A DNA stretch of 59,957 nt from a virus (IMGVR_UViG_3300025064_000001); one strand, 5' to 3'. Counted from the first letter of the stretch, positions 6,146 through 44,106 are shown. A program made the numbers and translations. Notes: a model not told the origin generated them from the letters alone.

Positions 6146-6161
6146 CGAACCTTATAGGGGT
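6146..6161 (-). promoter_or_regulatory. Late-unit element copy 1: ACCCCTATAAGGTTCG (minus-strand sense)
   Basis: 16 of 16 nt identical to the copies at 18165, 37577 and 44091. It lies 78 nt upstream of the 6068 start and 16 nt after a terminator. Confidence 0.6.
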
Positions 6162-6176
6162 GCGCCAAAAAGCAAA

Positions 6177-6206
6177 CACAAAAAAGCCCACCGCTTAGGG
6201 TGAGCT
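6177..6206 (-). terminator. Rho-independent terminator after the giant gene
   Basis: Minus strand: AGCTCACCC-taagc-GGTGGGCT followed by TTTTTTGTG. Confidence 0.8.
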
Positions 6207-6241
6207 TTGAGTTATCGAGGAATCTTCGGTAACTGAATTAC

Positions 6242-9200
6242 TTAAAATCCGTCACGTACTTGTGAAAAATCTGACGCCATCTGAGCACGCATGGACTTAG
6301 GTGCCAGCTTGGTAACGCGCTCTGATTTTTCCATCTTCATCTCACGCACACGGCGAGCGATATCCGTAGGCTTGATAACGATTTTTTGATCAGGGTTTTT
6401 AGCATTCCAGTCTTTGACAGCGGCTTTTGCATCAGCAACTTTATTACTATTACCTTCGACCACGCCAGCCGCCCATAGCGCTCTGATATTTGAGGCGCGC
6501 AGACTATAAAAAGAAGTGGCTGTCTGACCAAGATAGTTAGCCTCTTGGATTTTAGATACTTTGAGTGGCTGGAATCCTGCAAACTTAAATGCTGCATCAA
6601 CGGGTGACACGTCAGTGACCTTGTAGCCCTTGGTATCTTTATAGATACCAGACGTACCCATATCGATACCCTTCACAGCATTACGCACAGCGGTTGGCGA
6701 GAACTCAAGCGCACCTTTTTTAAGACTGGTTGCATCAAGATTTGCCACGCCTTTTGCAATATCTCTTGTGCCGGTTGCGATACGTCCGGCAAAGTCACCT
6801 GCTGGACCTGCAATCTCTAGCACGTCACGAGTGTTATTGGTGCGCTCTTTAAAGATACCTGTACCTGGAATCAAGTTACCAAGACCTAAGCGACCTGATA
6901 CATCGGTCGGTGAGCCTGGCAATGTTGAAGCGCCTGACTCAAGGAAGTCGCCCAACATTTCACCAAACCACGCATCCAAGAAGTCTTGACGTGCTTTTTT
7001 CGATGATAGGTTATAACCCATAATCTGTCCGATACCGTCAATCAAGTCTTCCGCATCTTCCATAAATGGTAAACCGCCTGAACCTGATAGTAGGAACATG
7101 ACGCCAAGCATAATCATGGTTGCCTTGCGACCTTGCGCACGTTCAACAGATCCCTTCTCGCCTTGATTCCATAGTCTGTGCATCAGCTCAATGTAAGATA
7201 CGGTATAAGTCTTAAAGGTCATGAGCGTACCGCCAACAGCGCCGCGGCCCCAATTCATGCGACTGGCTTTGTTGTAGACAAATTGCGTCTCTTTAATGGA
7301 TTTGGTGGCAAAGTCTGCTGGATTATCCATGCCCTGCTCTTTTGCCAAGCGGTAAGCTGCCACAAAAGTCACGCGGCGGTTAATCTGCTCAGCACCACTA
7401 AATAAGGCGCCCCATGCTAGACTAACGCGAGATAAGGTATTACCTGCCAGCGCTCTGGCATCACCAACTTTCGTGCCATCACCAGCGCTTAATGGATTCT
7501 TACCGCTGGCTTGCTTGAGTAGGTTGTGAACCTCTTGCGGGCTAAGCGTACCGTCTGCTTCTGCTCGCTCAATAGCTGCCAACAAGTCAGGCTCAAAGTG
7601 GCTTCTGTCTTTATCCTTAAACGCCTTTGTCCAGTCGCTTGATGCCTTACCAAGTTGTGAGGCTGCCTTAACTGCGCCGCCGAACTGTGAAAGGTATGGG
7701 AACGATACGGCAATGGGCTGCGTGATGTTGACCACGGCTGACGCAATCGAACCACCAAGATACTGCGCGAACATCCAGCCGCGCATAAGCTGCGCTTCTT
7801 CTTGTGGGTTTTTAATGTACTCAGCAAGCTTAACGGCCGCATCTTTTAGCTGACCTTCACCTTTTGGGATATCAGTAATAGCGCGGTCAATGTTGCTCAT
7901 GTTTAAAGCAGCCGAGGTATGGCGAGCATTAGAATAGATAAAGCTTGCCAGCACACGCCCAACGTCTTCAGAATACCCTTTAATACCTTTACGGTGCATT
8001 AATCGTTTCATGGCGCTACGATTGTTTTTGGTGCGTTTTAGGTACTCTTGGAACGCTTCATCTGCCGCTTTATCGCCAGTTGCATCAAGCCCTAGCATCT
8101 CACCAAACAATTCAGCCGTTTCAGGTGTCACTCCAGCGAATAATTTAAACTCTTCGTTCGATAAAGTACCGCGACTGACGGTGTGTGTAGCAGGGTCGTC
8201 GTACAGCGCTTTCATTTCAGCTTCCATTTTGCGAGCTTCATAAGCAGATTCAAACATACCAAAGTATTCACGGTTGCCATCAGCGTCTACCACGTCAACC
8301 GTGTACTGGCCGAAACGTGATAGCGGCGCATAACCATCATCCATTAGTTTGTTGGTACGGAATTGCGACTCTTTGATATCTTTAAGGGTCTGCTTTAATG
8401 CCTTCTCTTTTCTTGGGTTGGCTTGTATCAGGCTATTGATATGCTGCTCGATATTAAAGACCGCTTCGCGTAACGTGCCAGCCTCCATGACTGCTGCTTC
8501 GATATCGTTAGCATCTTTACCCAAACGGCGTAGCATGTCTGAGCGCGTGAGACTATCAAGACTTTTATCAGTGGCGGATCTGAACTCGCGGTACAGCTCG
8601 ATTTGCTCATCTGATAAATCAAACTTGCTGCGTAGCTCGCTGTCTTTCCAGACAAGGCCAGCGTTGACTTCCTCGTCAATAATGCCATTAATAAAGCGAT
8701 TGGCTTGGATGTTGTTTAGCGTGGCAAGCTGTTGCAGCTGTGCTGGCGTGATACGGTTGGCATCTTTTAGCATCTGTAAGCGGTCTTGCTTTGAGGCGGC
8801 CATGACTTTTTTGCGCCAGTCTTCTATGAGCACTGCTTTACCATCAAGGTCGCGGCCCCATAGTAATGTACCTTCAAAAATCGGCTTGCTTAACGCCTCA
8901 TTATCTTTGGCACCGATAGCAGACTTGGTGATATCGCGTAGTGAATCAAGCTGCGGTAACAGTCTTGGCGCAAGCTCTGAGGCTTTGGCTGCATAGAATG
9001 ATACGTCATTGATAAACTTCTCAGTGTTCTCAAAGACGGGTTTAAAGTACGGGTTACGCTGTGCCAAGTTGTACATCGTGCCGATGGTCTTGTGCCACCA
9101 CGATAGTTTGCCGGGAGGCGCGGAGCTTGCCCAGTCGTAAAGTCGTGTCGCTGTTTCTTTAGCGATATTGCGTGGGTCGAACTGATCATTCATGCCAGCG

Positions 9201-12200
9201 GCGCGGCTGAAACGGATATCAGGGTTTGAGCCGTCAAACGTGCCTACGTTGTCAGTGGCAGATTTGATTTGATTATTATTGATAGCAATAATCGCATCAG
9301 TTTCTCTACCAAAAGAGCCTTCATCTACTTCAAGAACCACACCATCGATATCATTTTCAGCTAAATGGTCATCAATTAGTTTTTTAGCAGCGAGTGAGCT
9401 GGCTTGTTGGTTGGCTGTCCACTCGTCCAAGATATCCCTAGATTTTTTGAATAACTCTTTCGAGCTTTGCGAACGGTCGCCAGTCTCATACCTTCTTTTT
9501 AACTCAGCTTTAATACTGCTCTCAGCTTCATCTAATGCCTTGCTGTAAGTATCATCATTCTGTTTCATGCTTGCGACAATATCCGCATAGCCATCGATAT
9601 TATTTTCATAATACTTTTTAGCTGCCTGCCTATCTTTTAGCTCAAGCGGATTTTTTATATTAGTAAATAAAGGCATCTGGTTTAAATTCTCACCAATACC
9701 TATATCTCTATCGCTGCCCTTTACGAATATACCTGTTGGTGTTTCATTGTCATGCTTCCCAGCCTTGGCTTTCGTTTTATCAAAAGTTGTCCAAGTATTA
9801 TCTGTTTGGTGATAAGTTATTCTTGGCTCACCATTATCATCGACTATCTTAGACGCATTTTTTGGGTCGTTCTGCCAGTCACCAAACCACTGCTTAAAGG
9901 CTGGTGTTCTTGTTTGCACCCACTGGTTTTCGGTCAAGTTGGTTGGCTTGCCATTAGGCGCAGTCATCCATTGATCAGTATTCTCATACTGGTCGCGCAC
10001 GTCCTGCATCTGTTTATCAGGAATATTCGGGTCGCTAAACTGCGGCGCTGCATTGGCCACATTGTCTAGCGAGCCTTGCTTTTCAATCTCGTTTACCATG
10101 CGTTCAGCCAGTGACAAGATATCTTGCGAGTTAATGGCAATCGGTACGCCAAGCGTATTTTTAAGCCATGAGCGTATCGCCATCACCATGCGATTAATCA
10201 TGCCAGCAACTTTACCTTGCTTGGCTTGCTGGCGTGAGGTAAGTGTGATTAGGTACGGCAGATACTCATCGAGTGCGTCTTGCTCATTACGTGCGACTTT
10301 ATCCGCCATCGCTTTTGCTTGCATAGCTAATGGGTCGCCTGCTTTAACCAGGCTGTCAAAATCTCTCATCAGCGCGTCGTAGGCTTTCTTATCCATGAGC
10401 GTTTGCATACCGCCATGACCACCGAGCTCATGTAAGAAGGTCGGGATAATCATATCGTCAGATAGGTTGTCTGCAATCAAGGTTGCTTTGCCGTTGTGGT
10501 ATAGACCATCGACATCACTAGGGATAGTCAGCTTGCCGTCTTGCATAAAGTCGGACAGCACTTTGATATCAAGCTTGCCATCAGCCATGAGCTTAGCAAT
10601 GGTTTCTTTACCAAACTTATCGTTTAGTTTGCCAATGACTTGCTGGCGTGTGGTCTGCGTACTGCCAATCGCGCCAGCCTTCACTTTATCTATCGCTTTA
10701 TTTAACTGTCCAGCACGACTAAAAAGTGTTTTTCCGTTACCGTCTTCCGAAGCTTTACTGTCAAGAGTGGCAAATAAGTTATCAAACGCTTCTGCCACTG
10801 GCGCCATCTCACTCTGTAGTAAGTATGGGTATCTGTCCATATTACGAGGAAAGGCATTCTCTGGCGTGATGTTGGCTAAGAAGTCGCTGCGCGCGCCCTG
10901 CTTCTCTAACTTGTTAATCACATAGCCTTCAAACGCTCGCGCTGCACGCTCGATAATGCGTGACCAATAACCATCAGGCGCACCTTTATCGATGGTGACA
11001 GCTCGAGCTTTCATTGGTGATTCGTCTAGCGTCTCTACCAAGTTTGCAAAAGCCACTTCAACTTGTGGGCGCACACCTTCTTTATGATTAGGGTCGGGCA
11101 TAAAGTTTTCGGGTAAGTAGGCGCGGTTCTTATTCATCTCGTACAACTGCTTGCGTCGCATCTCTGTTATTGGGCGCATACGACTAGGATTGCCGTTCTG
11201 ATCTTTCATAATCAGCATTGGCTCGGGCTTATAGGTGATATAAGCATTCTCTTTGCTGGTCAAGCGATTAGGGTCATCGCGGAACGAGGTAAAGTGATTG
11301 TCTAACGCATGGAACCATTCATGAGCAAGCGAGCCTGCGCCTTGCGTTTTGGTTAGGTTGATGATGACTTGCGACGGCTCATAGTGCGCCATGGCGCGGC
11401 CTTTACCGCGAGCACCAAAGGACATAGCGAGCTTTCCGCCTAGACCAATTGCTTCTGGTGGGATATTAAGCACGCCTGCCAAGTCCATGAAGGCGTCGTA
11501 AGCATCATTCAGCATGTTCTGACGGTCTTTGCTGTTGGCGCCTTGCTTTACCCAGTTACCAAACTGACCGCCACGTAAGCCAAACGTGTTCATAAACTGT
11601 TCGGTCGTTACGTCTTGACCGCTGCGATGGTCGGGACCGATGCGCTCACGGTTGACATTCGAGCGCATGTCAGATTTTTTGACGTTTACGCGCTCTTTAT
11701 GTTGATCCCACAGCTCAGATAGCTCGCTGTTGTTTTCTTTTAGAAACGCTCTAGCAGCATCCCTGTCGTTAAATTCAATAAGCGGCGTCTTATCTTTGTC
11801 GCTGGCTTGTGTGATAAACCACGACTTAGCATCGCCGCGACCGCGACTATACAAGTCAAATTTCAATGCTTGCGTCTTGACCTCGCCACCCAGTAGATTA
11901 TTAACCTTATCGATAATCTCTGATATATCTCTTTGCTCAGTGTTAAAAGTATGCGTTCTCTTGTCGATGGTCACAGCAAAGCCAACGAAGGGAATGTAAT
12001 CGCCATTCTCGTTTCTTTTTTGATAGCCTATCTGCGGATCAACTTTATCAATGCGCGACCACTGCTCTTTATCTAACTGTGCCAATAGCTGTGCCTGATA
12101 ACCAATGTCTGCCACTGCTTCTATTTGGGTTAATTGACTGATAAACTCATTTGCTGGCATGTCGCTGCTAAGCATGTTCTGCATAATACCGCGAGTGCTT

Positions 12201-15200
12201 TTAACCTTATTCACCCAGCTATTAAGTCTATAGCCTTTGCGTGGTTTGGTTGGTATCGTGCTGCGCAAGGCGGTAGCAAGTGCTGCCATTTGCGTGTCTT
12301 CAATAGCGTCAATATCTTTCTTGGGCCATATCTTGCTCAGTGGTTGGCTTATGATATCGTCGTCTGTCATTTCTTTTTGATAGAACGACTGCATGTCTTT
12401 ACGCGCGCCTGTTATCTTTTCGCCAAAGTCTTCAATCTCTGCGACTGGTGCGGTAGGCGTGGTTGGCTTGTCTGCTTTTTTGGTAGCAGGCTTAGCGCTG
12501 CTTTCGGCTTGTTTGAGGATTGGCAGGAGGGAGCCGGTAGGTTTCTTTGTCCCTTTCTTACGAATCATATCGCCTTCACCATCGAGCCAGATAGATGCCT
12601 CACTAAATGGGTCGCTAGGGTTTTCTTTAGCGGCAATATAATGCAGCTCTCGAATATCTTGGCTGGCAAGCTCTTTGGCTTTCTTGCTGGCCGTTATAGA
12701 GTTTGCACCTCGGATGTGAACAACTCGGTCATGCTTGCGCACCGTGATTCCGTCTTCATTGATGCGGAACTCATTACCATTCACTTGTGTTTGCCAGTCA
12801 CCGGTAGGATTAGGGTTATTAGTCGACTCAATAACACTGGTAGAACCTTTAGGTTTATCTTGCTGCTCTTCTTGGAATTTTTTAGATAACTTCAAGAATG
12901 ACTCGGGGTTGTATTTCGCTTCATCACGTATAAAGTCACGCGCATTCACCCCTTGCGCCTCAAGCTTATCTTTATAAGCGTTGACCATTGCTGTGCCGTA
13001 CTGCTTGTATTCTGCTTGCGCCTGCTCTTTGATTGGCAACAAGCGCTCTGTCTCTGCCTCTGCCTTCTCAGTGTTCTTGGTTTTAACTTCATCAAGTTTT
13101 TTAGCGTCAATTTTTGCTTTATCTGCTTTATAACTATCAAGCTCACTATCAATGTTCTTTGTGCGATTAGGGATAGATAGCTCGCCATGATCAAGTTTAT
13201 TACTATCGTTAAAGCCGTACTTCTCTGCAAGCTTAGATTCAGGGGTTGCTTCGCTTTCCTGCGCTGCTTGCTGCTTAGCATAGCTTTTTGTGTTGTTAAT
13301 ACCTGCATCCACGGTTTGGTATTGCATGCCCTTATGCAATCCACGTTTACCGTTGACCGTTGCTTCTACTGTGACGCCTTTATCGTCCATGCTTTTTACT
13401 ACGGCATCATCAAAAACTCTGCCGCTAGACATAATTAAGCGACCAAGGTTTTGACCTTCTGATAAGTTTAACGCTGCCCTGTAGTCCGTCTCAGTATTTT
13501 TGGTGGTAGGCTTCTGCATTTCACGAACCATCGCTTTATCTGACAGCTCTCTTGGTGCTTTCTTAGGCGCTGGAATATTAACCGTAGGGTTTTCATCGGT
13601 TAGCTGCGTGGCTGTTTGAGCATTAGTAGGCGCTGGATCATTACTCAGAACATTAGGCGCGTCGGCTTCAAAGTCAGCAAGTAAGTCGGGTGCATTAACG
13701 CGATTGGTTGCATCAATACGTGCCTGCAAACGCGACCCCATCCTAGTTGCTGAGCGTGCATTGCTATAGAAATCTCGGACAATCTCTTTGGATTGTGGGC
13801 TAATACCCTCTCCAAACATATCTTCCATATTTAGATAGTCGTCAATATTAGCGCCACTCTCCACAAGATCAATATAGGTTTCAGCAGCAGTCTTTATATC
13901 TTCTGATAGAGTATCGGCTTCACGATTGCCTTCCTTAATAGATTGATTAATCTTGGTTATTTGTGGCGCTTTATCAACCAAGGTTTTAAGCACGTTCTTA
14001 GCGCTGGAATCAATATCTTCTGTCACTGCTTTGGTTAGCTTTGATGAGCCGTAAGCATTTTGAAGTAGTGCACCTGACACTCGGTTCTGCCCAGTCTGTG
14101 ACAACTCTCCATTAGATAGTACAAGCTCATTTACTTCATTTTTATCAAGCGAGCTGATGAAGGCTTGAGTAAATTTATAACTGCCTTTTAGGTTTAAACT
14201 ACCATTGCTATCAAGCTCTAGGAGGTCAGCGTTTGGCAATATCTTAGCGTCTGCTTTCGCACGTTCACTGCTACTCATAGCTGCGCCAGTCGGGGCATTA
14301 GCACGTAAGGCAAACTGCTCTCTATCCATATCGGAATTATTGCGTCGTACAAGGACTGGTTGCTGCATCTGATTGATAGCATTGGCATCAAGACCAAACT
14401 CTTCAGCACTTTTATTTACAAATTGACGATAGGCATCTCCCTTGCCAGACTCGTACATTCTACGGATAGCGATAGTACGACCATTGCCAGACTCAACTAG
14501 GTTGTCGTCACGCCCAACAATAGGACTACCAGCATTGACAGAGTTATCCTTACCTAGTAGTTCGGGGTTAAATTTTTTGACGATATCAAGCACTTGCGCT
14601 TGATATCCAGCATCCGCTCTATCGCGTGGCTGATATTGCTGCGGGTAATCAGGGTTTTCTACAAAGTTGTTGCTATGGCTAGATAAAAGCTCACTTGCAT
14701 CAACCACATCAAACTGTAGCGGTATTTTGTCACCTCTAGGGTTGTAGGCCACAGACTGCGCTTTAGCTTCATCAATAACGCGAGCTTTAGGGTCTATCTT
14801 TTTGGCGGTAGGTTCAGGTTTTTTTGGCAGCGCATCAATGGCTTTTTTAAGGCGTGCGCGTTCTGGTACTGACTTAGGGTCAGCTTCAATCGATTGCGAT
14901 AGCGCTTGATAAGTACCGTTGTCGATATCAGCAGTAGCTAGACTGGTGCGCATACTTTGCAGCCACTTACTACCTGTCGGCTGCTCTTGCGTTTCAACTT
15001 CAACCAAACCAGCCATGCGTGTCGCTGAATTCTCACTAGATTGCGCACTCGCCTGCTCAAAATCTGCCGCCACTGAACTCGCGCCACTATCTACAGCAAT
15101 AGCAGCGGCAGCACTTAGACTGCCTTTGTTCGGGTCAAGTCCCATCAGCTCAGACGGTTTTGGTGCTTCTGGTATTGGTGTTCTATCTAGAATTTCACCG

Positions 15201-16645: not shown

Positions 16646-18112
16646 CTACCTCAAGGCTTCAAGTTGTTTGCGACGCTCATCTTTACTCAGACTTCTATCA
16701 TTGATAATGGCCTGCGCTCTTGGGTCAGACTCATAATCGATAGGCTCTGCTGGCAGGGCGCGAGTCTCACCCGTGTTTCTGTTCAGCAAAATGTCAGGGT
16801 TTTTAGTCGAAGTTAAGCCGTCAGCGGATAAGGTTTCACCGCCGCCAATGTTGGTCCAATACTCTTTATCGGACTTATCATTGGTGCCTTTGAGCGCTTG
16901 AATCTGCGCGGCCACAGCGGTTCTGTCTTCATCACTTTGCGCCGTATCATATTTTTCATACAAGGCGTTAAGCTGCTTTGGCGCATAGTTGGCAACATCA
17001 GAATTACTCTGCTCGATATCTAAGCGGCGAGACGCCAAGCTGTTTGCTTGCTGCTGCTGCTCAGCGGTCTGTTGGAACTTGCCAGCATCAAAACCAAGCT
17101 GGCTATTAAAGCGGCTGTTTGAATTGGCTTCACCAAGGGCGGCGCGTTCGTTGGCACCCTCTTGCGACATTTGTGTTTGTGCGAGCTGACTTGCGGCACT
17201 GAGCTGGGCGCCGTAGCGGTCATTCTTATACTTGTCATCAGCACCAACAATGCCAGCGCGTAGCTCCATTTGCTTGGCGGTAAGCTGCCCGTTTTGCGAA
17301 CCCTTATAAGCGGTACTGGCATCACGTAGCAATGCTTCGCGTTCTTGGCGCTCGCTCCAGCTTCGGGTCGGGGCATTTGGCATACGAAAGCCATTGCCAC
17401 CGCCACTGCGTTGAATGGTTTGCGGATTGTTTACTGGGTCAAAACCGATACGTGGCGGCGCGGTTTGTTGTGGCTGCTCCACATAACTGCCCGGCACCGC
17501 TTCTTCAGGTATCGCCTGCTTGCCAGCATAAACCGATGGGTAGTCTTTTGGATTCCATTTATCCTCGCCGCGACTTGGCTTGCCAACAGGAAAATTAAGA
17601 TTAATTTTGGCATCGGTTGTCGGTTTTTTGACGCCACCGCCAAGCTCAGTTAGGCGCTCTACTGGCTGGTTTGCGGCAGCGGCTTGTGCTGGCATTAACC
17701 CTAGCGATGGATTGATGGCGCTTGTCCTTGCTGGTGCTGGCGTGTTTTGGCGTAAGCCTTGGGCGGCTTGTGTTTGCTGGCTGGCTGGTAGTTTGAGTAT
17801 GTCTTGAATGCCGCGTCTGGTATCTTGGACGGCAGCATTACGACTGGCGGTTTGATTGGTTTGCGCTTGGCGCTGCTGCGTCAGTGCTTGCTCGCGTTCT
17901 TGGGCGGCGATGTTTGTGGCAACTTGTGGCGAGCGTTGCACCGGTGCTTGCTGTGGCATCTGCTTGGCTTGTGTGGCAAGTGCGCCTGCACCCATAAATC
18001 CTGCTGGTGCGTTACTAGCGCCTAGACCTAAGTTTGCGCGGCCACGTTCAAACGCCTCACGTCTTTTCTTTTTCTCTTCTTCGCTGCGTGTATCAATCGC
18101 CATAACCATCAC
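16646..18112 (-). CDS. Q/A-rich low-complexity protein, internal virion (ejection) protein candidate
   Basis: Composition and position directly upstream of the giant gene. First gene after late-motif copy 2. Confidence 0.6.
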   Translation of the reverse strand: MMVMAIDTRSEEEKKKRREAFERGRANLGLGASNAPAGFMGAGALATQAKQMPQQAPVQRSPQVATNIAAQEREQALTQQRQAQTNQTASRNAAVQDTRRGIQDILKLPASQQTQAAQGLRQNTPAPARTSAINPSLGLMPAQAAAANQPVERLTELGGGVKKPTTDAKINLNFPVGKPSRGEDKWNPKDYPSVYAGKQAIPEEAVPGSYVEQPQQTAPPRIGFDPVNNPQTIQRSGGGNGFRMPNAPTRSWSERQEREALLRDASTAYKGSQNGQLTAKQMELRAGIVGADDKYKNDRYGAQLSAASQLAQTQMSQEGANERAALGEANSNSRFNSQLGFDAGKFQQTAEQQQQANSLASRRLDIEQSNSDVANYAPKQLNALYEKYDTAQSDEDRTAVAAQIQALKGTNDKSDKEYWTNIGGGETLSADGLTSTKNPDILLNRNTGETRALPAEPIDYESDPRAQAIINDRSLSKDERRKQLEALR

Positions 18113-18125: not shown

Positions 18126-18155
18126 TAGACATTACCTAAGTATGGCGGATATACT
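18126..18155 (+). promoter_or_regulatory. Sigma70-like promoter for the inverted moron (TAGACA-18 nt-TATACT)
   Basis: Read directly. Divergent from, and overlapping, late-motif copy 2. Confidence 0.45.
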
Positions 18156-18164
18156 GAGCTTTTC

Positions 18165-18180
18165 CGAACCTTATAGGGGT
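18165..18180 (-). promoter_or_regulatory. Late-unit element copy 2: ACCCCTATAAGGTTCG
   Basis: Exact copy, 53 nt upstream of the 18112 start. On the + strand it lies in the 5' leader of the moron. Confidence 0.6.
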
Positions 18181-18187
18181 AGGCGCC

Positions 18188-18472
18188 ATGAGCGTATTGG
18201 TAATGTATATTTTAGGCGTAGCGATGTTTGCTGCGGTGCTTGGTATGTTCTGGTATTTCATTCGTAGCATCTCTATCATGGGCCGTCATAATATCCTCAT
18301 AGGGATAGCCGGTCTTATTTTGGCACCTATCTCGCAAGTGGTTTTTTATGCCATCAAAGATGATGAGCTTGATGATAAAGACAAAAAAGCCTTTATTGGT
18401 TTGGGCGTTTCTTTATTGGTCATCGCTATGATCAGTGCCATCTCTGCGATATACCCACCACCACCGATGTAA
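18188..18472 (+). CDS. Moron: 94-aa three-TM membrane protein transcribed against the virion operon
   Basis: It is the only + strand gene between 3.3 and 53 kb. It has its own promoter and a perfect bidirectional terminator. Confidence 0.8.
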   Translation: MSVLVMYILGVAMFAAVLGMFWYFIRSISIMGRHNILIGIAGLILAPISQVVFYAIKDDELDDKDKKAFIGLGVSLLVIAMISAISAIYPPPPM

Positions 18473-18483
18473 ATGATAGGCGC

Positions 18484-18522
18484 AAAAAAATACCCGTCAC
18501 GACCGTGACGGGTATTTGTTTT
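18484..18522. terminator. Bidirectional rho-independent terminator (10-bp perfect stem TACCCGTCAC/GTGACGGGTA with A-run and T-run flanks)
   Basis: Read directly: AAAAAAATACCCGTCACgaccGTGACGGGTATTTGTTTT. Confidence 0.85.
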
Positions 18523-25203: not shown

Positions 25204-25803
25204 CTACACAGTCAGACTGATACGATAACCAATCTCATAGGTATCACCATCTTGGAATACGCGAGGCGCTGCATACTTACTGGCACTAATGAGCGCGCCA
25301 GCCGTACTGCCCTTGCTGCTATTGGTGAGCATTGCCGCGCCTTGCACTGTTAAGCTACTGGCAGTTTTCATGGTTACTTTTGCGACGGCGGCCATATTGT
25401 CAATAGAGTTAGTAGCAGTATTGGCAGGCGTCCACGTTGGGCGTGTTGCTGCGCTATAGCCTTCAGTCATACTAACAATTTCACTTGCGGTACTGGCAAA
25501 GCTTGCGGCAGTCCAACTTGCGGTTGGCTGTGCGGCTGCTGAAAATAGCGCCAGGTGATAGCTGGCAGGTTTTGGCGTGGTGCCAAGCGCGACGTTTAGA
25601 ATGTGCGCAAGGCCTTCAGTTGGGATAAGGTTTTCGGTACGTGTCCACTCGCCGCCATTGATACGGTCGTAGTATTCACCTTTGGCAGTAATGCCTTGTC
25701 CTGTGGTAATACTGCCATCTTCGTTGTTTGTGTAGTCTTTGGCACTTACTGCTGCTAGTAATGTGCTCGCTAAGAAGGGGTTTAATGATTTTTGTGATTT
25801 CAC
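25204..25803 (-). CDS. 199-aa virion structural protein (function unassigned)
   Basis: ORF in the virion block. Ala/Thr/Ser-rich. Confidence 0.65.
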   Translation of the reverse strand: MKSQKSLNPFLASTLLAAVSAKDYTNNEDGSITTGQGITAKGEYYDRINGGEWTRTENLIPTEGLAHILNVALGTTPKPASYHLALFSAAAQPTASWTAASFASTASEIVSMTEGYSAATRPTWTPANTATNSIDNMAAVAKVTMKTASSLTVQGAAMLTNSSKGSTAGALISASKYAAPRVFQDGDTYEIGYRISLTV

Positions 25804-25837: not shown

Positions 25838-27019
25838 TTAGTTTACCGCTGTGACAAGCCTCCGGTCGAACCTTACAGTAGTGCCGGACTGTGCGCTGAT
25901 ATTGCTAATGCGCCCAGCTTGGTATTCAATAATCTGTCCAGCGCTGCTGCCAGCGACATAACCATTGCTTGCCAGCCATACCGTTACTAAGCTTCCGCCC
26001 TCTGCTGCCTCACCAATATCATTGCTTGGTATCTGTATCGCGCTGTTTGGTACGGGTGCTTGTGCGCTCTTAATAGAGATAGTCATATCGTCCGGCTGCG
26101 TGCCTTGAATGAATATCACATGGTCCGACTGACCAACCCATAAGCCATTCTCGACCGGCTGAATAAAGGTGACGCGCTGGCTAGTCTGGATAAAGCCATG
26201 GCGTTCATCGTGCAAGTGGTAGTCCAGCGGCTCTGAAAATCGAATGACGTTAGCGGTTGCTGTGATAAGACGACCGCGCCAGTAGCATAAAAATTTACCG
26301 GTAGGCATAGGCGATAGGTGCGCAAACTGCGCGGCCATACCTAGCTTATGGTCTTTGCTGATTGCAAAGTTAGTCGCGGCTCTATCTATAGTGCCAGCCA
26401 GTTGCATATCAGTACCGCCAATACTGGTCGCATAGATATTTACGCCAGTCACCGTCGGGTCAAAAACCATCGGCAGTACAATATCAGCCGACTCGCCAGC
26501 AGTGACATAATCAGACAAGCTGGATTCCATCGAGCCTCGTAACCATGATATCGCCACGCTTCTTGATGATGGCTTGGTGTTTTCCACGCTATCATCAGCA
26601 ATCGGCGCTGGCGGCGCATCAATGGTAAGTGGTATAGCTAAGTGACCATCATAGGCATATAACCCATGCTTACCAGCTACCACGACCAGGTTGTTTAGTA
26701 CGGCATGACTCACCTCGCCATCACCAATAGTTGCCAACACTTCATGCGACCAACTGTTACCATCTGCCTTTACCTTAACCCAATCATTAACATATACGCC
26801 AAAAACGTCTTTATGTAGTGGGCTTTGCCATAGGTTCGTGTAGGTACTATCTGTTACCTTGCCGCCACTGGCAATCATATCGAGCTTGCCAGCTGGCGTG
26901 ACATTGGCGTTCACCACATCGCGCATATAAACAAACGGCTCACGACCGCCCTGTACCATTGCCGCATCTTCCGAGGTGTTATCGATACCGAAACACGGCA
27001 TAAAACTTTGACTAGGCAT
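25838..27019 (-). CDS. 393-aa virion structural protein (function unassigned)
   Basis: ORF in the virion block. Overlaps the upstream gene by 8 nt. Confidence 0.7.
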   Translation of the reverse strand: MPSQSFMPCFGIDNTSEDAAMVQGGREPFVYMRDVVNANVTPAGKLDMIASGGKVTDSTYTNLWQSPLHKDVFGVYVNDWVKVKADGNSWSHEVLATIGDGEVSHAVLNNLVVVAGKHGLYAYDGHLAIPLTIDAPPAPIADDSVENTKPSSRSVAISWLRGSMESSLSDYVTAGESADIVLPMVFDPTVTGVNIYATSIGGTDMQLAGTIDRAATNFAISKDHKLGMAAQFAHLSPMPTGKFLCYWRGRLITATANVIRFSEPLDYHLHDERHGFIQTSQRVTFIQPVENGLWVGQSDHVIFIQGTQPDDMTISIKSAQAPVPNSAIQIPSNDIGEAAEGGSLVTVWLASNGYVAGSSAGQIIEYQAGRISNISAQSGTTVRFDRRLVTAVN

Positions 27020-36431: not shown

Positions 36432-36442
36432 CTATGCCACTC

Positions 36443-37477
36443 CTAAAGGTTGTTTAAGTATTGCTCGCGCTTCTCAGGCGACCAGTTCATCATTTCATCA
36501 GCAAGCTCGATACCGGACATTGAGTCCATCTGCTCAGCGATGTTGGTTGCGCCTTTATGTCCACCAGGTATGTCGCTTAGGCTGGCAGGAATTGGGGGCG
36601 CTGCATTATCGATTGCCTCGCGTGCCTTGGCTTTTAAGTCATCAGTTGATGGCTTATCGGCTTTGGCAGGCTCAGCGGTGCTATTGGTTGACTGCTTATA
36701 GTTATTGAGTAGTTCGACCACTTGTTCGGCCGTACCTTGTGCTAAGACGCCATCGAGCGCGGCTTGAACGTAGGTAGGCTGTGCGCCTTTCCATGTTTCA
36801 AACTCGCCACTCTCTAAGATGGAATCAATATCTTGGTGAGCTTCGTAAATGGTCCGATAGTGCGCGGCTTCTGCACTCTCTTGCTCGCGTGCCTGTATTG
36901 GCTGCAACGCTTGAGCAACTTGCGCATCGACCTGAGCTTTCACGCGCTCATCAATCAGCTTGTTAATACCTTCTGCCAAAGCCTCTTCAGAGAAATCTCC
37001 AAAGTAGTCAGGGTTCACGCCAGCATCGATTGCGGCCTGTGCCGTCTCAATGTCCTGCTCTTGCTGCGTAGGTGCAACAGTGGCAGGCGTTTGGTTTTGC
37101 TTGCGTAAAATTTCTAACTCAGCATTGGCAGCGGCTAACGCTTCTTGTGATACGCGGTCACGCTCACGCGCTTCGACCAGCTTTTCATAAGGAATGGTGT
37201 GTACGCCATCACGAGCGAGGACCACCTTTTCACCTTCAACATCATCGTTCGACGAGTCATTAGGCGTGTCAGCGGGGGATTCTGTGGCTGGCGTGTCATC
37301 CTTATCATCAGGCTCAGTGGTCTGCTCATTCGCTGCGGTATCGGCTGGCGTGTCGATACTTTCCGATTGCTCGGTATCGCCATTCATACTCATTTCTAAG
37401 TATTGCGCTGCTTGTTGAGGCGACCAATCACCATCATCAAAGCTGTCATCAATAAAACTATTTGCATCAACTGTCAT
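36443..37477 (-). CDS. Scaffolding protein candidate (acidic, Ala/Gln/Glu-rich, helical)
   Basis: Composition and position between the portal block and the capsid gene. First gene after late-motif copy 3. Confidence 0.6.
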   Translation of the reverse strand: MTVDANSFIDDSFDDGDWSPQQAAQYLEMSMNGDTEQSESIDTPADTAANEQTTEPDDKDDTPATESPADTPNDSSNDDVEGEKVVLARDGVHTIPYEKLVEARERDRVSQEALAAANAELEILRKQNQTPATVAPTQQEQDIETAQAAIDAGVNPDYFGDFSEEALAEGINKLIDERVKAQVDAQVAQALQPIQAREQESAEAAHYRTIYEAHQDIDSILESGEFETWKGAQPTYVQAALDGVLAQGTAEQVVELLNNYKQSTNSTAEPAKADKPSTDDLKAKAREAIDNAAPPIPASLSDIPGGHKGATNIAEQMDSMSGIELADEMMNWSPEKREQYLNNL

Positions 37478-37576
37478 TAATCTGTCCTTTACCCATGTCG
37501 GAGGGCTACCGTTAAAAAACAGGTTTCGCCACTAGCAATGGCTTGATAACAATTTAAGCGTTGGCAAGCTTTTATG

Positions 37577-37592
37577 CGAACCTTATAGGGGT
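37577..37592 (-). promoter_or_regulatory. Late-unit element copy 3: ACCCCTATAAGGTTCG, with TTGGCT 17 nt upstream of TATAAG
   Basis: Exact copy, 100 nt upstream of the 37477 start and about 30 nt after a terminator. Confidence 0.6.
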
Positions 37593-37621: not shown

Positions 37622-37648
37622 AAAAAAACCACCGCGAAGGGTGGTTTT
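37622..37648 (-). terminator. Rho-independent terminator after the portal-proximal small genes
   Basis: Minus strand: AACCACC-cttcgc-GGTGGTT followed by TTTTTTTG. Confidence 0.85.
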
Positions 37649-38612: not shown

Positions 38613-40889
38613 TCACTCCACTGGCAAGTTGTCAGTAATATCAGGTGTTTCAATACCTTGCATGGGTGACTGCCCATCTTGCGGCACTGGCGGGAACATC
38701 GGACTGGTGTTCTTCTGCACATCGACCGCTTGCTCTGGTAACTCGCCAGCCACATCATCAGGCAGTGGTTGCTCTACTGGCTGGACTGGCATGTCGGCAG
38801 TAGGGTAATTTGGATCAACGCCATAAGGGTTAGGGCGCTGATAGCCTGCGCTCATCATTATTTCATCTGCAATCGGTGCTATCTGTGGCATCTGTGCAAT
38901 CTGAGCGCCACCTTGCATGGCCGCAAAAGCACTTTGGACGCCGATTTGTACGGCTTTAGCGTCAAGCCCTTTAATCTCACTATTCGCTTTACGCTCTTTA
39001 AGCTCAAGCTCACGTAGCTTAATGTCGTTACCTGCTTTAACCAACGCATCTTGAATGGCTTGCTGCTGTGCTTGTTCAATCTCCTCCGGTGATTGCTGCT
39101 GCTGAACATTGCGTACGTCCTCGATGAATTTTTCTTTGTTCGGAATATCCATCAAGGCAATCATGTAAGGCATGGCCGCGACTTGATACTCTGCTGGCAA
39201 GGACTTCACGGCCTCACTAAATGCGTTCAACTGCTGACCACGGTAGCTATTAGTGCTCGGCACGTCTTCAAGCGCAACCATGAGGCGCGTCTTGCTAATA
39301 TCGTTTGATAGATAGACTTGACCAGTTTCAGGGTCACGCTCAGGCGCATTGATAGTCACTGCACGTTCTTCTGTGACGGCATCACCTTCAATGATAATGG
39401 TTTGCGGCTCTTGTCCTAAGTCCTCAATGATAAGCGCAAGCAAAAGCTCGCCTACTTGCTTGCGCCCTTCTCTGAAGTTATCCATCATATCGGCTAGCGA
39501 CTGATTACTTTGCTCGACTTGCAACTGCTCTTGATAGCCTGACTGCGCGTTACCTTTACCTTGGAATGGGTCAGTAATACCAGACGTGCGGCTAATGCTC
39601 TCTCTATTTTCTTGCAGCATTTGATAGTGCTGGCTAGTTAGCTGGTAGTCGCGGATAATCTCAAACTTTGCACCAGGTAACTTCATGTGATTTTGGTCAA
39701 GCACGATATCGCCGTCTGGTCTTGCGGCTTGCTTGCGAACCTGCGCGTCAGTCATATCGACAGCGCCTTTGGTGCGCTCCATGCGCGTAACAGACATTCC
39801 CCAGCGCAGCTTAGCAAGTGCGCTATTTAAACTGTCTTGCGAGTATTTCATATCACGCACATAGCCATACGGTATGCCAGTCGCGTCCTCTTTAAAGCCC
39901 CAAAACGGCACGTATGGGAAATGCGTGTGATTATAAGGCGATGGGCTGTCATGCAGTAAGTGCGGTCCCAACCAATATGCGCGGCGCATTCTCGTGACAG
40001 TAGCAGTGATTGGCTTGGTCAAGCCAGCGGCCACAGCCATCACATGATTTTGATTATCCTCGTCATACTCAACGACACGGCCATCAGGCGTTTTGATGAC
40101 GGTTGCCGCTTCCCAGCGTCTATACCACAGCTCAAACACGCACAGCTCTTTACTCGTTGGATTGTACCAGCGTTCCTCATGCAGCGTACTGCCACGTCCA
40201 AAACCATGCGAGCCTTCAAGCCCAGTCGAACCACCACCATCATAGCTCTGTGACATATACCACGAGTTCATGCCGTAGCGACCTAGATTCATGATCATAT
40301 CTTTGTGCTCGGGGAATGATAGCGCGATACGCTCAGGACGAAGCCACTTAGCACGGCGTAACCATCTTGCATCTGACAAGTCTGCTTCAGTCGCTCGCAT
40401 GTCCCAGTGGATTTCATTGCGATGAATCTTACGGCAACGATATGGGTACTTGAATGGGTCAGTCTCTTTACTCACCTCAACCCAACCAATGCCGCATTTA
40501 ATCTGCGTCTCGAACGCATCACTACACGCTTTATCGGCTTTACTATTACGCTCAGCTTGATTGACCTTATAATTCAGCGCGTCTGCCACGTCTTGGCCAC
40601 CGACTTCACCATTGGGCGTCACTCGCCAGTCTGTTCGCACAGTCGCTTCATAGCCTTGGATAGCTCTAAGTGCGGGACCAATCAAGTTCTCGACGGCAGG
40701 CGGCAGACCTAACTCTCGCTGCTTCTTGAGTAATTCACCGTCTAATTGATTGCCATCGGCATAATCCATCTCTGAATCAGCAATAGCTCGCCAGCGTGGT
40801 TGCTGCTCAATCTCGTTGATAATATCTTGATACTCAATTAAGCTCAGCGCTTGGTCGTCGGCTGGCGTGTCTGTCACATCTATACTCAT
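38613..40889 (-). CDS. Portal protein
   Basis: 758 aa, immediately downstream of the large terminase. Q/P-rich C-terminal tail. Confidence 0.75.
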   Translation of the reverse strand: MSIDVTDTPADDQALSLIEYQDIINEIEQQPRWRAIADSEMDYADGNQLDGELLKKQRELGLPPAVENLIGPALRAIQGYEATVRTDWRVTPNGEVGGQDVADALNYKVNQAERNSKADKACSDAFETQIKCGIGWVEVSKETDPFKYPYRCRKIHRNEIHWDMRATEADLSDARWLRRAKWLRPERIALSFPEHKDMIMNLGRYGMNSWYMSQSYDGGGSTGLEGSHGFGRGSTLHEERWYNPTSKELCVFELWYRRWEAATVIKTPDGRVVEYDEDNQNHVMAVAAGLTKPITATVTRMRRAYWLGPHLLHDSPSPYNHTHFPYVPFWGFKEDATGIPYGYVRDMKYSQDSLNSALAKLRWGMSVTRMERTKGAVDMTDAQVRKQAARPDGDIVLDQNHMKLPGAKFEIIRDYQLTSQHYQMLQENRESISRTSGITDPFQGKGNAQSGYQEQLQVEQSNQSLADMMDNFREGRKQVGELLLALIIEDLGQEPQTIIIEGDAVTEERAVTINAPERDPETGQVYLSNDISKTRLMVALEDVPSTNSYRGQQLNAFSEAVKSLPAEYQVAAMPYMIALMDIPNKEKFIEDVRNVQQQQSPEEIEQAQQQAIQDALVKAGNDIKLRELELKERKANSEIKGLDAKAVQIGVQSAFAAMQGGAQIAQMPQIAPIADEIMMSAGYQRPNPYGVDPNYPTADMPVQPVEQPLPDDVAGELPEQAVDVQKNTSPMFPPVPQDGQSPMQGIETPDITDNLPVE

Positions 40890-40900
40890 ATCTCAATCCT

Positions 40901-42523
40901 CTACATTACACGCCAGTCGTCAGCGTCTTGTTCTTCGTAAGTGGTGGTTTTATCTGACCTGTCTAACATGCCAGCCTCTTTTGCTTGTGCGTGTTGGCGC
41001 AAGGCATCAGCACCTTCACTACAGCCATTCGCCTTGTTTGGTCTGTTCGTGTAGCGCATATCTTTTGTGCTAAAGACTTTCTTATAACCTTCCACGCGCT
41101 TAATACCGAGCTGGCAATCAACCTCGTCAAAGTAATAACCTTTCATCGCGGCTCTGGTCTGCTGAATGCCGTTCATAAGCTCTGAGATAAGCGGCACGAC
41201 TTCAAAGACTTCACCGGGCATGAGGTCCTCTAACATCTCGCGTGTTGATTTATTGGTGTCTGATAAGCGCTTGTGGTCAGCATCGTGTGGTAAGAAGTGA
41301 CGCCCAAACACATAGCCGTAGCTTCTAAGCTGTGCAACATAGTGTTTCAGCGTCTCATTGTGTGCTTCGTAGTATCTTATCCAGCGGTCTTGACCGTTCA
41401 TGTGCTGCAAAAACCAAATAGCACAGCCATCTGAGTTGCCAATATCCCAAAACGTATCGACTGGAATGTCGAGCTCGTCAATATGACAAATACCGCCACG
41501 TTTGCGTAGCTGTAGCATATCTTTTGCGTAGTAATGACCTTCTGTGCTGACCTGGAATGGCTCATCAGGGAATGATGGATACTCTTGCCACATGCGCTCT
41601 TCTGCGCCAACAAAGTCACTGTTCTTGATTGCCACATACCAGGCGCGCTGATCAGGGTCGAGTTTCATATCGATACCCATATCACGCTTGGCTATCATCT
41701 CGACTTGATCAAAGTATTCGTGTTCTTTGTCCGTGATATCGACCGTGCGCGAATTGACACGGTAGTTTTCTTCTTGCCACCAAGCGTAGAAGTGCAATCG
41801 GTAGTCTTTGCTCGATAGCTTCTTGCGTGAATAGAAATGTTTTTGCGCTGCTTGAGTTAAGCGGAAGAAGTCACCCTCTCGACCTTCAGCGGTTGATTCG
41901 ATGACTAAAATACCGCTGGCAGGCACAGCAGGGATTGAACCGGTCATTACCTCTTTTGCTTTGTCCGGATATTTGGCACAAATTTTGCCAAACTCTGATA
42001 TGTGCAAGCGATGAATGGTGCCAGAACGCATGGACGTGGCCACACGGATTGATGAGTTGTTGTGCTCGAATAACAGCTCAGCAGCGCTGTCACGCTTTAA
42101 AGGGAAGCGCTCACGTATCTCAGTCGGTAGATTCTCGTAGGCAAACTTAACCTTGTCTCGAAAGATAACTTCACTGGCATTTTTATCTTGGGCGATAATA
42201 CCGCAGCGCTGGTCAGCGTTAAATAACGCATGGTCAAGCCAAAGTATCGCTATGAGTGTGGTAAAACCTAGCTGGCGAGCTTTCAAAATGATGTTACGGT
42301 GCCATAATCTATCGACGAACTTCTTTTGCGCAGCATTGGGCTTAAACGGCACGACGTAGCTTTCGGCTTCAACGTCTTCTTCGTCATCACCTTTAATCAT
42401 AATCTTATACAGACAGCCACTAAACACGCGCCAGTAAGGGTCAGCTAAGCATCTTGCCAGCTCAGCTGCATCGGTTGGGAGTGGATTTAGGGCGGTCGTG
42501 TGGATTACGTTAGGCATATTCAA
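40901..42523 (-). CDS. terL: Terminase large subunit
   Basis: 540 aa. ATPase-type N-terminal half (ILKARQLGFTT, ...IIAQD) and nuclease-type C-terminal half. Gene order is TerS-(MTase)-TerL-portal. Confidence 0.8.
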   Translation of the reverse strand: MNMPNVIHTTALNPLPTDAAELARCLADPYWRVFSGCLYKIMIKGDDEEDVEAESYVVPFKPNAAQKKFVDRLWHRNIILKARQLGFTTLIAILWLDHALFNADQRCGIIAQDKNASEVIFRDKVKFAYENLPTEIRERFPLKRDSAAELLFEHNNSSIRVATSMRSGTIHRLHISEFGKICAKYPDKAKEVMTGSIPAVPASGILVIESTAEGREGDFFRLTQAAQKHFYSRKKLSSKDYRLHFYAWWQEENYRVNSRTVDITDKEHEYFDQVEMIAKRDMGIDMKLDPDQRAWYVAIKNSDFVGAEERMWQEYPSFPDEPFQVSTEGHYYAKDMLQLRKRGGICHIDELDIPVDTFWDIGNSDGCAIWFLQHMNGQDRWIRYYEAHNETLKHYVAQLRSYGYVFGRHFLPHDADHKRLSDTNKSTREMLEDLMPGEVFEVVPLISELMNGIQQTRAAMKGYYFDEVDCQLGIKRVEGYKKVFSTKDMRYTNRPNKANGCSEGADALRQHAQAKEAGMLDRSDKTTTYEEQDADDWRVM

Positions 42524-43256
42524 CGCTCAACTTGCTTAGCGCTTCATTGATACGCTGCTCAGCTATTGCAAAGTAATCTTTATCTAGCTCAATGCCAATA
42601 AACTTGCGATTAGTATTGATTGCCGCGACACCAGTAGAGCCTGAACCCATGAATATATCAATTACTGTTTCACCATCGTTTGTAGAGTTATTAATCAAAA
42701 TCTCTAGCAGCTCGACGGGTTTTTCGCTTGGGTGTTTCTTGCCACCTATAATATTAGGCACTCTTAATATATTACTCGTGCCTTTATTGTGGATATTCTT
42801 AGCACCGCCTTTACGCAACATCAAAACGCACTCATAGCCCTGCATATAGTAGCGATTAGGCGTTACATTGCCTTTATCCCAAATTAGCAAGTTTTGAAAC
42901 TTAAACCCTGCTTGTTCGGCTTTATTTTGCAATTCAGCTAAGTTGCGAGAGTTAATCATCAAGTAAGTGTGTGATTTATCTGCCATTACGCGATACAGTT
43001 CAGGCAACCAATGCTCAAACTTAATATCGTTATGCTTAAACATTTTCCCTGTTCGCACCTCCTCAACCCAATCGGTACGCTTGTTGCTTTCTCTGCGCTT
43101 ATTCATAATTCCTGAACACTCGTCACCTAGTGCAACCTTTCTACAGCCACCTGCCACTATTTTGTATGGAGGGTCAATGACCGCGCAATCAATGCCGTTA
43201 TCAGGCATTGATTTTAAAATATCCAAGCAATCGCCCTGTTTCAAATCAATCATCAT
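42510..43256 (-). CDS. DNA methyltransferase (N6-A/N4-C class, DPPY motif). The start is probably the ATGATG at 43256/43253.
   Basis: VIDPPY (motif IV) and IDIFMGSGSTGVAA (motif I) in beta-class order. No partner endonuclease was recognised. Confidence 0.8.
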   Translation of the reverse strand: MMIDLKQGDCLDILKSMPDNGIDCAVIDPPYKIVAGGCRKVALGDECSGIMNKRRESNKRTDWVEEVRTGKMFKHNDIKFEHWLPELYRVMADKSHTYLMINSRNLAELQNKAEQAGFKFQNLLIWDKGNVTPNRYYMQGYECVLMLRKGGAKNIHNKGTSNILRVPNIIGGKKHPSEKPVELLEILINNSTNDGETVIDIFMGSGSTGVAAINTNRKFIGIELDKDYFAIAEQRINEALSKLSVEYA

Positions 43257-43342
43257 TACCACCCTTACGCTTCTTGCGCTTGGTATAAGCGACACACGCG
43301 ATATCAATTACCATAAACACGACTTCGAGCAATAATTTACGT

Positions 43343-44035
43343 TTACGCATCGTCATCACCACTCACGCCAATACTATTACTGGCAGGCGCGTCCTCATAT
43401 TCGGGATCAGCTTTCACTACACCAAAAGCATTGCCGTTATTATTCGCAATGCTGTGTAGTAGTGTGGTGAGGGCATCGACTGGCGAGCTATCAACGTCAT
43501 CGAGGCCGTAGGCTTGACGCTCTAATGTCACAAGCTTGGTCATGGTGTCTGCCAAGTCTTTCATGACACGCACATGATTAGATAAAGACGTGACGCGCTC
43601 GTATGCTTCAAGCGCGCTTTCATCAATCGCATTGGATTTGAGTGCTGCTATAAACAAGTCTTCTAAGCGTGCGCGGTTGTCAGTGCCAATCTGCGCCTTT
43701 AAGTCATCAAGCAAGGTCATGGCAATGCTGCGAGCATCACCAATGTCTTGACGGTGTGATAAGCGCACGTTGGCTGTTAGCTGTGCGTTTTCTTCAATCG
43801 TTTGGTCATCACTTGCCAGCTTTTTAACCGCACGCTCTTGCACCAATGCGTTTGCTCGCTCTTTGATGCGGTGTTTTAAGTCACGTTTCCAAGCATGTTT
43901 TTTAGCGCGGCGTGTGATAGTCGTTGCATGAATGCCAAAATCTCGCGCAAGTTGTGCGTTTGTACGCAAGTCTGCACGATAAAGTCGCTCGACTTCTTCC
44001 CAATCACACTCAGGCTTGTCGTTTTTTTTACTCAT
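43343..44035 (-). CDS. terS: Terminase small subunit (HTH N-terminus)
   Basis: WEEVERLYRADLRTNAQLARDFGIHATTITRRAKKHAWKRD. ATG at 44035 with GGAG 7 nt upstream. First gene after late-motif copy 4. Confidence 0.65.
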   Translation of the reverse strand: MSKKNDKPECDWEEVERLYRADLRTNAQLARDFGIHATTITRRAKKHAWKRDLKHRIKERANALVQERAVKKLASDDQTIEENAQLTANVRLSHRQDIGDARSIAMTLLDDLKAQIGTDNRARLEDLFIAALKSNAIDESALEAYERVTSLSNHVRVMKDLADTMTKLVTLERQAYGLDDVDSSPVDALTTLLHSIANNNGNAFGVVKADPEYEDAPASNSIGVSGDDDA

Positions 44036-44090
44036 ATCATGCTCCAAACACCTTTAATAGCTTGATGTTAGAGCCTGTACGTGAAAAGTG

Positions 44091-44106
44091 CGAACCTTAT
44101 AGGGGT
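44091..44106 (-). promoter_or_regulatory. Late-unit element copy 4: ACCCCTATAAGGTTCG, with TTGCAC 18 nt upstream of TATAAG
   Basis: Exact copy, 56 nt upstream of the TerS start and about 80 nt after a terminator. Confidence 0.6.

Follow-up and report, generated by a model that had tools for sequence, protein, structure and literature searches.

A near-invariant 16-nucleotide box heads the four late gene blocks of an F116-like temperate phage and is probably the site of a late activator

In the P2 Ogr and P4 Delta systems, four late operons each have their own activator-dependent promoter, and these promoters share a conserved upstream element; Ogr, which has a zinc finger, acts at a site (TGT-N12-ACA) with its centre near -55. 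At class II promoters, such as those served by CAP and FNR or PRM bound by lambda cI, a quasi-palindromic site at about -41.5 abuts the -35 hexamer, and from this position the activator contacts region 4 of sigma or the alpha subunit of RNA polymerase. Phage Mu also has four late promoters (Plys, PI, PP and Pmom) that head blocks of morphogenesis or lysis genes: in outline (PMC4461284), they combine a recognisable -10 element and a poor -35 element with a site for the phage activator, protein C, that overlaps the -35 region, and this activator, a small protein, is produced at an earlier stage of lytic growth. Here we describe a 16-nucleotide (nt) box that occurs in four exact copies, each ahead of a block of late genes, in the 59,957-nt viral genome IMGVR_UViG_3300025064_000001 (“the window”, meaning the whole stretch that was analysed). 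On balance the box is probably the docking site of a small phage activator at four late promoters, which would place the four blocks in one activator-dependent late regulon.

The box reads CGAACCTTATAGGGGT on the plus strand and ACCCCTATAAGGTTCG in the minus-strand sense of the late genes. A pattern search of the window returned the four exact copies that an earlier, sequence-only reading of this DNA had listed and no fifth exact copy (Table 1), and it added one copy with three mismatches that the reading had not mentioned. The count is far above background: with up to three mismatches allowed there were 5 matches, against a mean of 0.24 (maximum 2) in 100 dinucleotide shuffles. By the list of open reading frames (ORFs), all four exact copies are intergenic, run in the late-gene (minus-strand) sense and lie 44-100 nt upstream of the first gene of their block, again as had been stated. 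When the four regions were aligned, identity was limited to Y-ACCCCTATAAGGTTCG-N-A and the flanks were unrelated; because the flanks are not repeated, the box is neither a mobile element nor a segment that was duplicated. The alignment also agreed with the earlier remark that no -35 element is conserved upstream of the box.

The window is the genome of a temperate phage, encoding an integrase (1537..2793), a CI-like S24 repressor (53149..53856) and a Rha/KilAC antirepressor-type protein. An exact direct repeat of 127 base pairs (bp) at the two ends of the contig (1-127 and 59831-59957) makes it probable that the window is no chromosome fragment but a complete phage genome, circular or circularly permuted, of ~59.8 kilobases (kb). 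The nearest isolated phage is Shewanella phage vB_SbaS_Y11 (Y11), which is syntenic with the window across the whole late region, and Pseudomonas phages F116 and 8P and Pseudoalteromonas phage Y7 are further off. By the product of the gene at 44239..44679, the candidate regulator discussed below, the closest relatives are Psychrobacter prophages (86-87% identity).

The search of related phage genomes for the motif, which the earlier reading had called for, found the box at the same four syntenic unit heads in the complete genomes of Y11, F116 and 8P: before terS, before the scaffold and capsid genes, before the genes for a 488-amino-acid (aa) protein and a giant protein, and before the lysis genes. 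That such distant relatives keep it there bears out the claim that the copies head four late units. The Y11 boxes are ACCCCTGTAAGGTTTT, GCCCCTGTAAGGTTCG, ACCCCTATAAGGTTCG and TCCCTTGTAAGGTTTG; those of F116 are CCCCCTGTAAGGTT (terS), CCCCCTGTAGGGTT (scaffold), CCCCCCGTAGGGTT (gp58) and CCCCCTGTAAGGAT (holin); and 8P has CCCCTGTAGGGCT in all four places. The syntenic counterparts of copy 3 read ACCCCTGTAAGGTTTT in Y11, CCCCCCGTAGGGTT in F116 and CCCCCTGTAGGGCT in 8P. In the part of the Y7 genome examined, ACC-N3-YGTAAGGTTAG stands at three of the four unit heads (terS, scaffold and lysis genes). The box also stands before terS, and often before the scaffold gene too, in regulator-bearing IMG/VR loci and in the majority of 20 loci from prophages of Psychrobacter, Acinetobacter, Alkanindiges and others; both sets cover just the region around the regulator gene. 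The family consensus is CCCC-T-N-T-A-R-G-G-Y-T, followed in many lineages by CGAC or AGAC and surrounded by unconserved sequence, and it is nearly invariant across hosts from Psychrobacter to Pseudomonas. A scan of IMG/VR with the pattern CCCCTNTAAGGTTCG returned 116 stretches, as many as chance matches could explain by our own rough estimate, so the statistics below are restricted to loci that synteny or the presence of the regulator gene confirmed.

The position of the box within a promoter was read from the sequence downstream of it. Each offset within the 60 nt that follow the box was scored for a hexamer of the form nAnnnT, in which the second base is A and the sixth is T. Among 35 non-redundant sites such a hexamer lies 22 nt (51%) or 23 nt (34%) after the last T of TARGGYT, together 85%, against 0-17% (about 6%) at other offsets. 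A second set of sites gave the hexamer at a gap of 22-23 in 38 of 47, and a deliberately loose set gave it at 49 of 94 sites, against 12.7% expected (binomial P = 4e-20). Anchored on this hexamer, 26 of 40 sites have A at the implied +1, seven positions past the hexamer end, and 20 of 40 have C at -1; C/A at -1/+1 is the usual start preference of bacterial RNA polymerase. Setting the hexamer at -12 to -7 places the last T of the box at -35 and the conserved block CCCCTNTARGGY at -47 to -36, and the 10-bp quasi-palindrome CCCTnTARGG shares the centre of that block, -41.5 relative to the implied start. From -35 on, many relatives read TCGACA, TCGACC or TAGACC, a -35-like hexamer with a 17-18-bp spacer. 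A -10 element at a fixed distance from an activator site is what sigma-70 class II promoters have (the lysis site of the window follows the rule approximately), and the geometry suggests that the box is a class II activator site beside a weak -35-like TCGnnn. Three of the four window sites fit, with the hexamer at a gap of exactly 22 and A at the implied start (Table 1); at the lysis site the block CCTAYCTTGATTAAAT is kept in relatives; and the implied leaders of ~20-65 nt fit the gene starts. A scan for consensus sigma-70 promoters found none on the minus strand (late sense) at any of the four window sites, as would be expected of activator-dependent promoters.

The degenerate fifth copy has similar company: a -35-like TCGACC and, at a gap of 23, a -10-like TAAACT (25840-25845), upstream of the gene at 25204..25803. 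It is identical in Y11, yet there it stands inside coding sequence that is itself 89% identical, and it is missing at the equivalent place in F116 and 8P. From its sequence it may be a weak internal promoter.

The earlier reading had placed the -10 element inside the box, as TATAAG, with a start within ~15 nt. In that form, or with the -10 in the TAAGGT register, host polymerase would read the box with the help of a phage factor at or near the -10, much as the T4 late sigma factor gp55 reads TATAAATA. The idea has its attractions: TATAAG in the window resembles TATAAT, in most lineages the first, second and sixth bases of the TAAGGT or TAGGGT hexamer are still T, A and T, and a conserved -35 is lacking upstream of the box. 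Comparison with relatives removes both registers. In Y11, F116, 8P, the Acinetobacter group and Y7, G or C takes the place of the second base of TATAAG, the would-be -11 A (TGTAAG, TCTAAG, CGTAGG), and TAAGGT reads TAGGGC at all four 8P sites. Neither register accounts for the conserved nAnnnT 22-23 nt downstream or for C/A at the implied -1/+1. A T4-type late promoter (an extended -10 read by gp55) would also call for a sigma factor, and no sigma-like protein was detected by Pfam, PHROGs or NCBIfam among 21 early-region proteins, a scan that left out the plus-strand ORFs of 54175-59695; the candidate regulator is a winged helix with beta strands and not an all-helical sigma fold. A -10 within the box is in our estimate quite unlikely. 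Of the original proposal, a phage-specific late promoter or activator site, the box is better read as the activator box of a late regulon.

Table 1. Positions of the box copies, the units they head, predicted promoter elements, terminators and the candidate regulator gene in the window
Feature	Position	Strand	Remarks
Box copy 1	44091..44106	-	Exact match; heads terS/methyltransferase/terL/portal unit; predicted span about -48 to -33
Box copy 2	37577..37592	-	Exact match; heads scaffold/capsid/tail unit; identical 16-mer at syntenic Y11 site
Box copy 3	18165..18180	-	Exact match; heads unit of 488-aa protein and 3465-aa polyvalent protein
Box copy 4	6146..6161	-	Exact match; heads lysis unit
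Degenerate fifth copy, ACTACTGTAAGGTTCG (minus sense)	25867..25882	-	3 mismatches; within 3' end of head-closure gene 25838..27019
Predicted -10 of copy 1 (terS), TAACAT	44065..44070	-	Gap 22 after TAAGGTT; implied start A near 44058; terS ATG at 44035
Predicted -10 of copy 2 (scaffold), TAAATT	37551..37556	-	Gap 22; implied start A near 37544; TA(A/C)ATT kept at this offset in relatives
Predicted -10 of copy 3 (488-aa/giant), CATACT	18139..18144	-	Gap 22; implied start A near 18132; CATACT kept in Y11 and locus L119
Predicted -10 of copy 4 (lysis), TTAAAT	6120..6125	-	Weakest; gap 22, no A at position 2; TAAATG at gap 23; implied start near 6113
Unit 1, terS	43343..44035	-	phrog_1206; then methyltransferase, terL, portal
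Unit 2, scaffold-position gene	36443..37477	-	Then capsid gene and tail genes
Unit 3, gene of 488-aa protein	16646..18112	-	Then 3465-aa polyvalent protein
Unit 4, gene of gp49-like protein	5133..6068	-	Then two small ORFs and endolysin 3317..4189 (phrog_181)
Intrinsic terminator between regulator gene and box 1	44193..44211	-	
Terminator upstream of box 2	37622..37648	-	Hairpin 37631-37645 and T7 run
Bidirectional terminator	18481..18517	both	13-bp-stem hairpin 18488-18517, T-runs on both strands; ends upstream minus-strand unit and inverted ORF 18188..18472
Intrinsic terminator upstream of box 4, after giant gene	6183..6208	-	
Candidate activator gene	44239..44679	-	146-aa product; phrog_8117, no function assigned

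The best candidate for the protein that reads the box is the 146-aa product of 44239..44679, and its binding there is predicted from co-occurrence. When every major ORF of the window was compared with Y11, 8P and F116, this was the only non-structural (early) protein common to all four (76%, 54% and 40% identity, respectively). Conversely, Burkholderia phage DC1 and Serratia phage Parlo, whose TerL is 54% identical to that of the window and which were not among the matches to the regulator, have no box in 25 kb around terL. The earlier reading had picked out this winged-helix gene, and the comparison sides with it. In an AlphaFold model (mean predicted local distance difference test score 76), residues 1-62 form an N-terminal winged helix, 73-94 a small beta region and 96-145 a long C-terminal helix, and the best-conserved N-terminal residues fall in the winged-helix and wing regions. 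The same reading had described the gene as the last early gene, directly upstream of the first copy: in both the window and F116 it is indeed the last of the early rightward operon, with the terS box directly downstream, and this arrangement is not general, as 8P shows (below). Its other neighbours in the window, besides terS, are an unannotated 94-aa ORF (44935..45219) and, beyond it, a gene for a deoxynucleoside monophosphate kinase.

Similarity searches place the protein in a broad fold class. Pfam gave no match above threshold, PHROGs and NCBIfam gave sub-threshold winged-helix signals at best, a profile search of the PDB gave nothing specific, and Foldseek against PDB and BFVD found only generic 60-residue winged-helix DNA-binding domains, none with an E-value <= 0.001. 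The only named family with a sequence signal is AbiEi (PF13338; NF047376), with which the protein shares an N-terminal winged-helix DNA-binding domain: NF047376 matches residues 10-76 (E = 2.4e-4, 20.8 bits against a cut-off of 150), and some distant homologues carry precomputed PF13338 matches. Unlike AbiEi, the protein is 146 aa long, has no AbiEi C-terminal domain and is encoded in a phage early operon, and no AbiEii toxin gene was recognised beside 44239..44679. An identity as AbiEi antitoxin was rejected on these grounds: a score far below the cut-off, a match confined to the winged-helix part and no recognised partner toxin.

A promoter element could also be read by something else: a factor of the host, or a further phage protein not linked across lineages by sequence comparison. 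Such a recogniser would sit well with a box that is near-invariant from Psychrobacter to Pseudomonas hosts while the candidate protein falls to 34-40% identity. The distribution of the box speaks the other way, since it follows phage lineage and the presence of the regulator gene and not the host; the four complete genomes have no other early protein in common; and the residues that are most conserved in the N-terminal part of the candidate are those of the winged helix and its wing. We give another recogniser only a small chance.

Several observations weigh against the proposed activator and its promoters. First, the 8P regulator gene lies ~11 kb upstream of terS, near cro, so that adjacency to terS is not universal. 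Second, the negative controls are two phages with ~25 kb each. Third, the box hardly varies over the range in which the protein diverges so far, and because the box hardly changes, co-variation between protein and site is uninformative. Fourth, a typical winged-helix dimer would be expected to have a site longer than a palindrome of 10 bp. Fifth, the -35-like hexamers of the window are very poor (TCGCAC, TCGCAT, TCGGAA and TCGTAA), and its lysis site has no nAnnnT at a gap of 22 or 23 (TTAAAT and TAAATG). Finally, the putative -10 and +1 assignments are statistical ones.

The terminators of the late region bring in a third possibility, namely that a Q-like antiterminator loads onto DNA at the box: bound there, the winged-helix protein would join polymerase and make it resist terminators in and between the late units. 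As had been stated, a transcription stop lies upstream of each copy, and terminators were found at all four window sites (Table 1); they are not an integral part of the module, however, as three of the four F116 box sites abut the stop codon of the previous gene with no terminator, and insulation by terminators is therefore lineage-specific. The comparison with lambda Q is apt in one respect, because in the window and in F116 the regulator gene holds the lambdoid position of Q, last in the early right operon and immediately before the packaging genes. Terminators do punctuate the late region, and there are hairpins in the F116 and 8P leaders between box and start codon, mostly without U-tracts. 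On the other side, a Q system has a single late promoter with a terminator behind it, whereas here there are four boxes, each past the preceding terminator, and the window leaders contain no terminator; nor did Pfam or NCBIfam give a Q-family match. We therefore do not count the protein among the lambda, 82 and 21 Q antiterminators, and regard an antitermination role as very unlikely. The inverted ORF 18188..18472 (94 aa, weak DUF2569 match) is faced by a plus-strand sigma-70-like promoter within 18126-18190 (TAGACA-18-TATACT, 10 of 12 matches); because this promoter shares positions with the minus-strand -10 predicted for box 3, late promoter 3 and the moron promoter would be divergent and overlapping.

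The weakest alternative, a repeat with no role in transcription start (an RNA element in read-through late RNA, a site for packaging or replication, or what is left of mobile DNA), is highly improbable: any transcript passing the upstream terminators would contain the box, but a transfer RNA scan and Rfam found nothing at the sites (the sole match at gathering score in the window, Proteo-phage-1 at 2853-2935, is far from the boxes), there is no conserved hairpin (the possible C/G pairing is 2 to 4 pairs depending on lineage), the unrepeated flanks speak against a mobile element, and strict orientation, intergenic placement before the same four blocks and fixed spacing to a -10-like hexamer and C/A start all point to a promoter.

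Under the activator reading, then, the 16-mer would be the upstream specificity half of four (possibly five) late promoters for host sigma-70 polymerase. The block CCCC-T-N-T-A-R-G-G-Y would lie at about -47 to -36, the next bases, T-C-G, would be the first of a poor -35 hexamer, a weak -10 (nAnnnT) would follow 17-18 bp past the -35, and transcription would start ~35 nt downstream of the box. The 146-aa winged-helix protein, made from the early rightward operon, would bind the box near -41.5 and recruit or stabilise RNA polymerase in the manner of class II activators. Since both the -35 and the -10 elements are poor, the promoters would be silent until the activator binds, and the packaging, head/tail, injected-protein and lysis genes would then be switched on together. 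Because each late unit of the window phage ends in a terminator, the units would be switched on separately but in step, and each promoter would be necessary in this phage.

Set beside the systems described at the outset, the locus shares with Mu the plan of four late promoters with a recognisable -10, a poor -35 and an activator site by the -35 region. Mu C has a site of another sequence, which is longer and dyad-symmetric; moreover, the window lineage is unrelated (F116-like, with an N4-gp56-type capsid), and its protein is a predicted winged helix with no above-threshold Pfam or NCBIfam match to characterised regulator families. The last point also separates it from zinc-finger Ogr, as the protein has no above-threshold family match of any kind in those two databases; the four units and the shared upstream element are otherwise as in P2. 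The quasi-palindromic block abutting a -35-like hexamer at ~-41.5 is as at class II sites, from which the window differs in that its site is only 10-12 bp, its start is a predicted one and its protein is phage-encoded.

Use of host polymerase follows from what the window encodes. No phage RNA polymerase, either of the T7-like single-subunit or of the N4 virion type, was found in it: the largest early ORF in its ORF list is 330 aa, and the giant 3465-aa protein (6242-16639, minus strand) is a polyvalent protein with ddrB-ParB, LPD5, LPD1 and ADP-ribosyltransferase (ART) domains only. It has no sequence match in the PDB, the N4 mini virion RNA polymerase included, and was rejected as an N4-type virion RNA polymerase for these two reasons. 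With no early ORF above 330 aa and a giant protein that is not of the N4 type, host polymerase would have to serve late transcription. For comparison, the giant protein of phiC725A was reported to be similar to N4 gp50 at its C-terminus only (phiC725A paper). The 3465-aa protein resembles DarB-type injected anti-defence proteins, and in 8P (5145 aa) and Y7 its homologues carry the annotation structural or DarB-like.

A bolder version of the mechanism is unlikely but worth stating: the 146-aa protein (phrog_8117) could be the founder of a family of late-gene master regulators that act not as ordinary class II activators but as specificity factors replacing the -35, like a T4 MotA-like appropriator or a surrogate of sigma region 4. 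The family would range over F116-like temperate phages of Pseudomonas, Psychrobacter, Acinetobacter, Shewanella, Pseudoalteromonas and some beta-proteobacteria. A factor of this kind would explain why a 12-bp box stays near-invariant across hosts with 40-65% G+C despite a degenerate -35 hexamer.

Some further features of the window and its relatives were seen along the way. The first late unit of the window has a DNA methyltransferase gene (phrog_67, 42510-43307, minus strand) between terS and terL, with no counterpart there in Y11, F116 or 8P. Y11 in turn has ~700 bp of non-coding DNA between its antirestriction genes and terS (48200-48760 of the Y11 record, 3200-3760 of locus L002), rich in short direct repeats (GCTGGTCAT... 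and CATAGCTAAA...), which may be an origin or pac region; nothing equivalent stands at that place in the window. A gene for a CsrA-like regulator lies within the head/tail late unit of F116 (L154, 33363-33569), 8P (L156, 9910-10122) and Dartukuta (L160, 25862-26056) and was not noticed in the window; in 8P an extra sequence of the box pattern (CCCCTGTAGGGCTGG) occurs at ~9838, just upstream of it. Dartukuta is deposited as “Bacillus phage vB_BspP_Dartukuta” (MW749009.1), a host assignment that looks doubtful, as its gene content and box variants are those of the Gram-negative F116-like group. Finally, the Rfam match to the small RNA Proteo-phage-1 (RF03044; plus strand, 45.9 bits against a gathering score of 42) lies just 3' of the integrase gene.

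Neither the box nor the protein family is described in the literature searched. The papers on the F116-like phage phiC725A and on Y11 do not mention promoters or the box motif, the VvAW1 paper has nothing on the motif or on any late promoter, and a full-text search for the motif strings gave unrelated primer and sequence matches only; the original F116 genome paper (PubMed 15716012), which was outside this search, may have noted the repeat. The type of switch is familiar: an activator-dependent late promoter is a textbook mechanism, so the gain lies in assignment and coverage and not in concept. The intuitive reading of the motif as a -10 element is corrected. If the activator reading is right, phrog_8117, so far without a function, would gain one, and a simple sequence rule would serve to annotate late operons and their starts in F116-like genomes. 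The activator and its promoter would be a compact, probably orthogonal pair and a candidate expression switch in several gamma-proteobacteria. For the phages themselves, one 12-16-bp box and one small protein would control the whole late programme of a widespread temperate group, to which F116, a classical generalized transducer, belongs together with many prophages of Pseudomonas, Acinetobacter and Psychrobacter.

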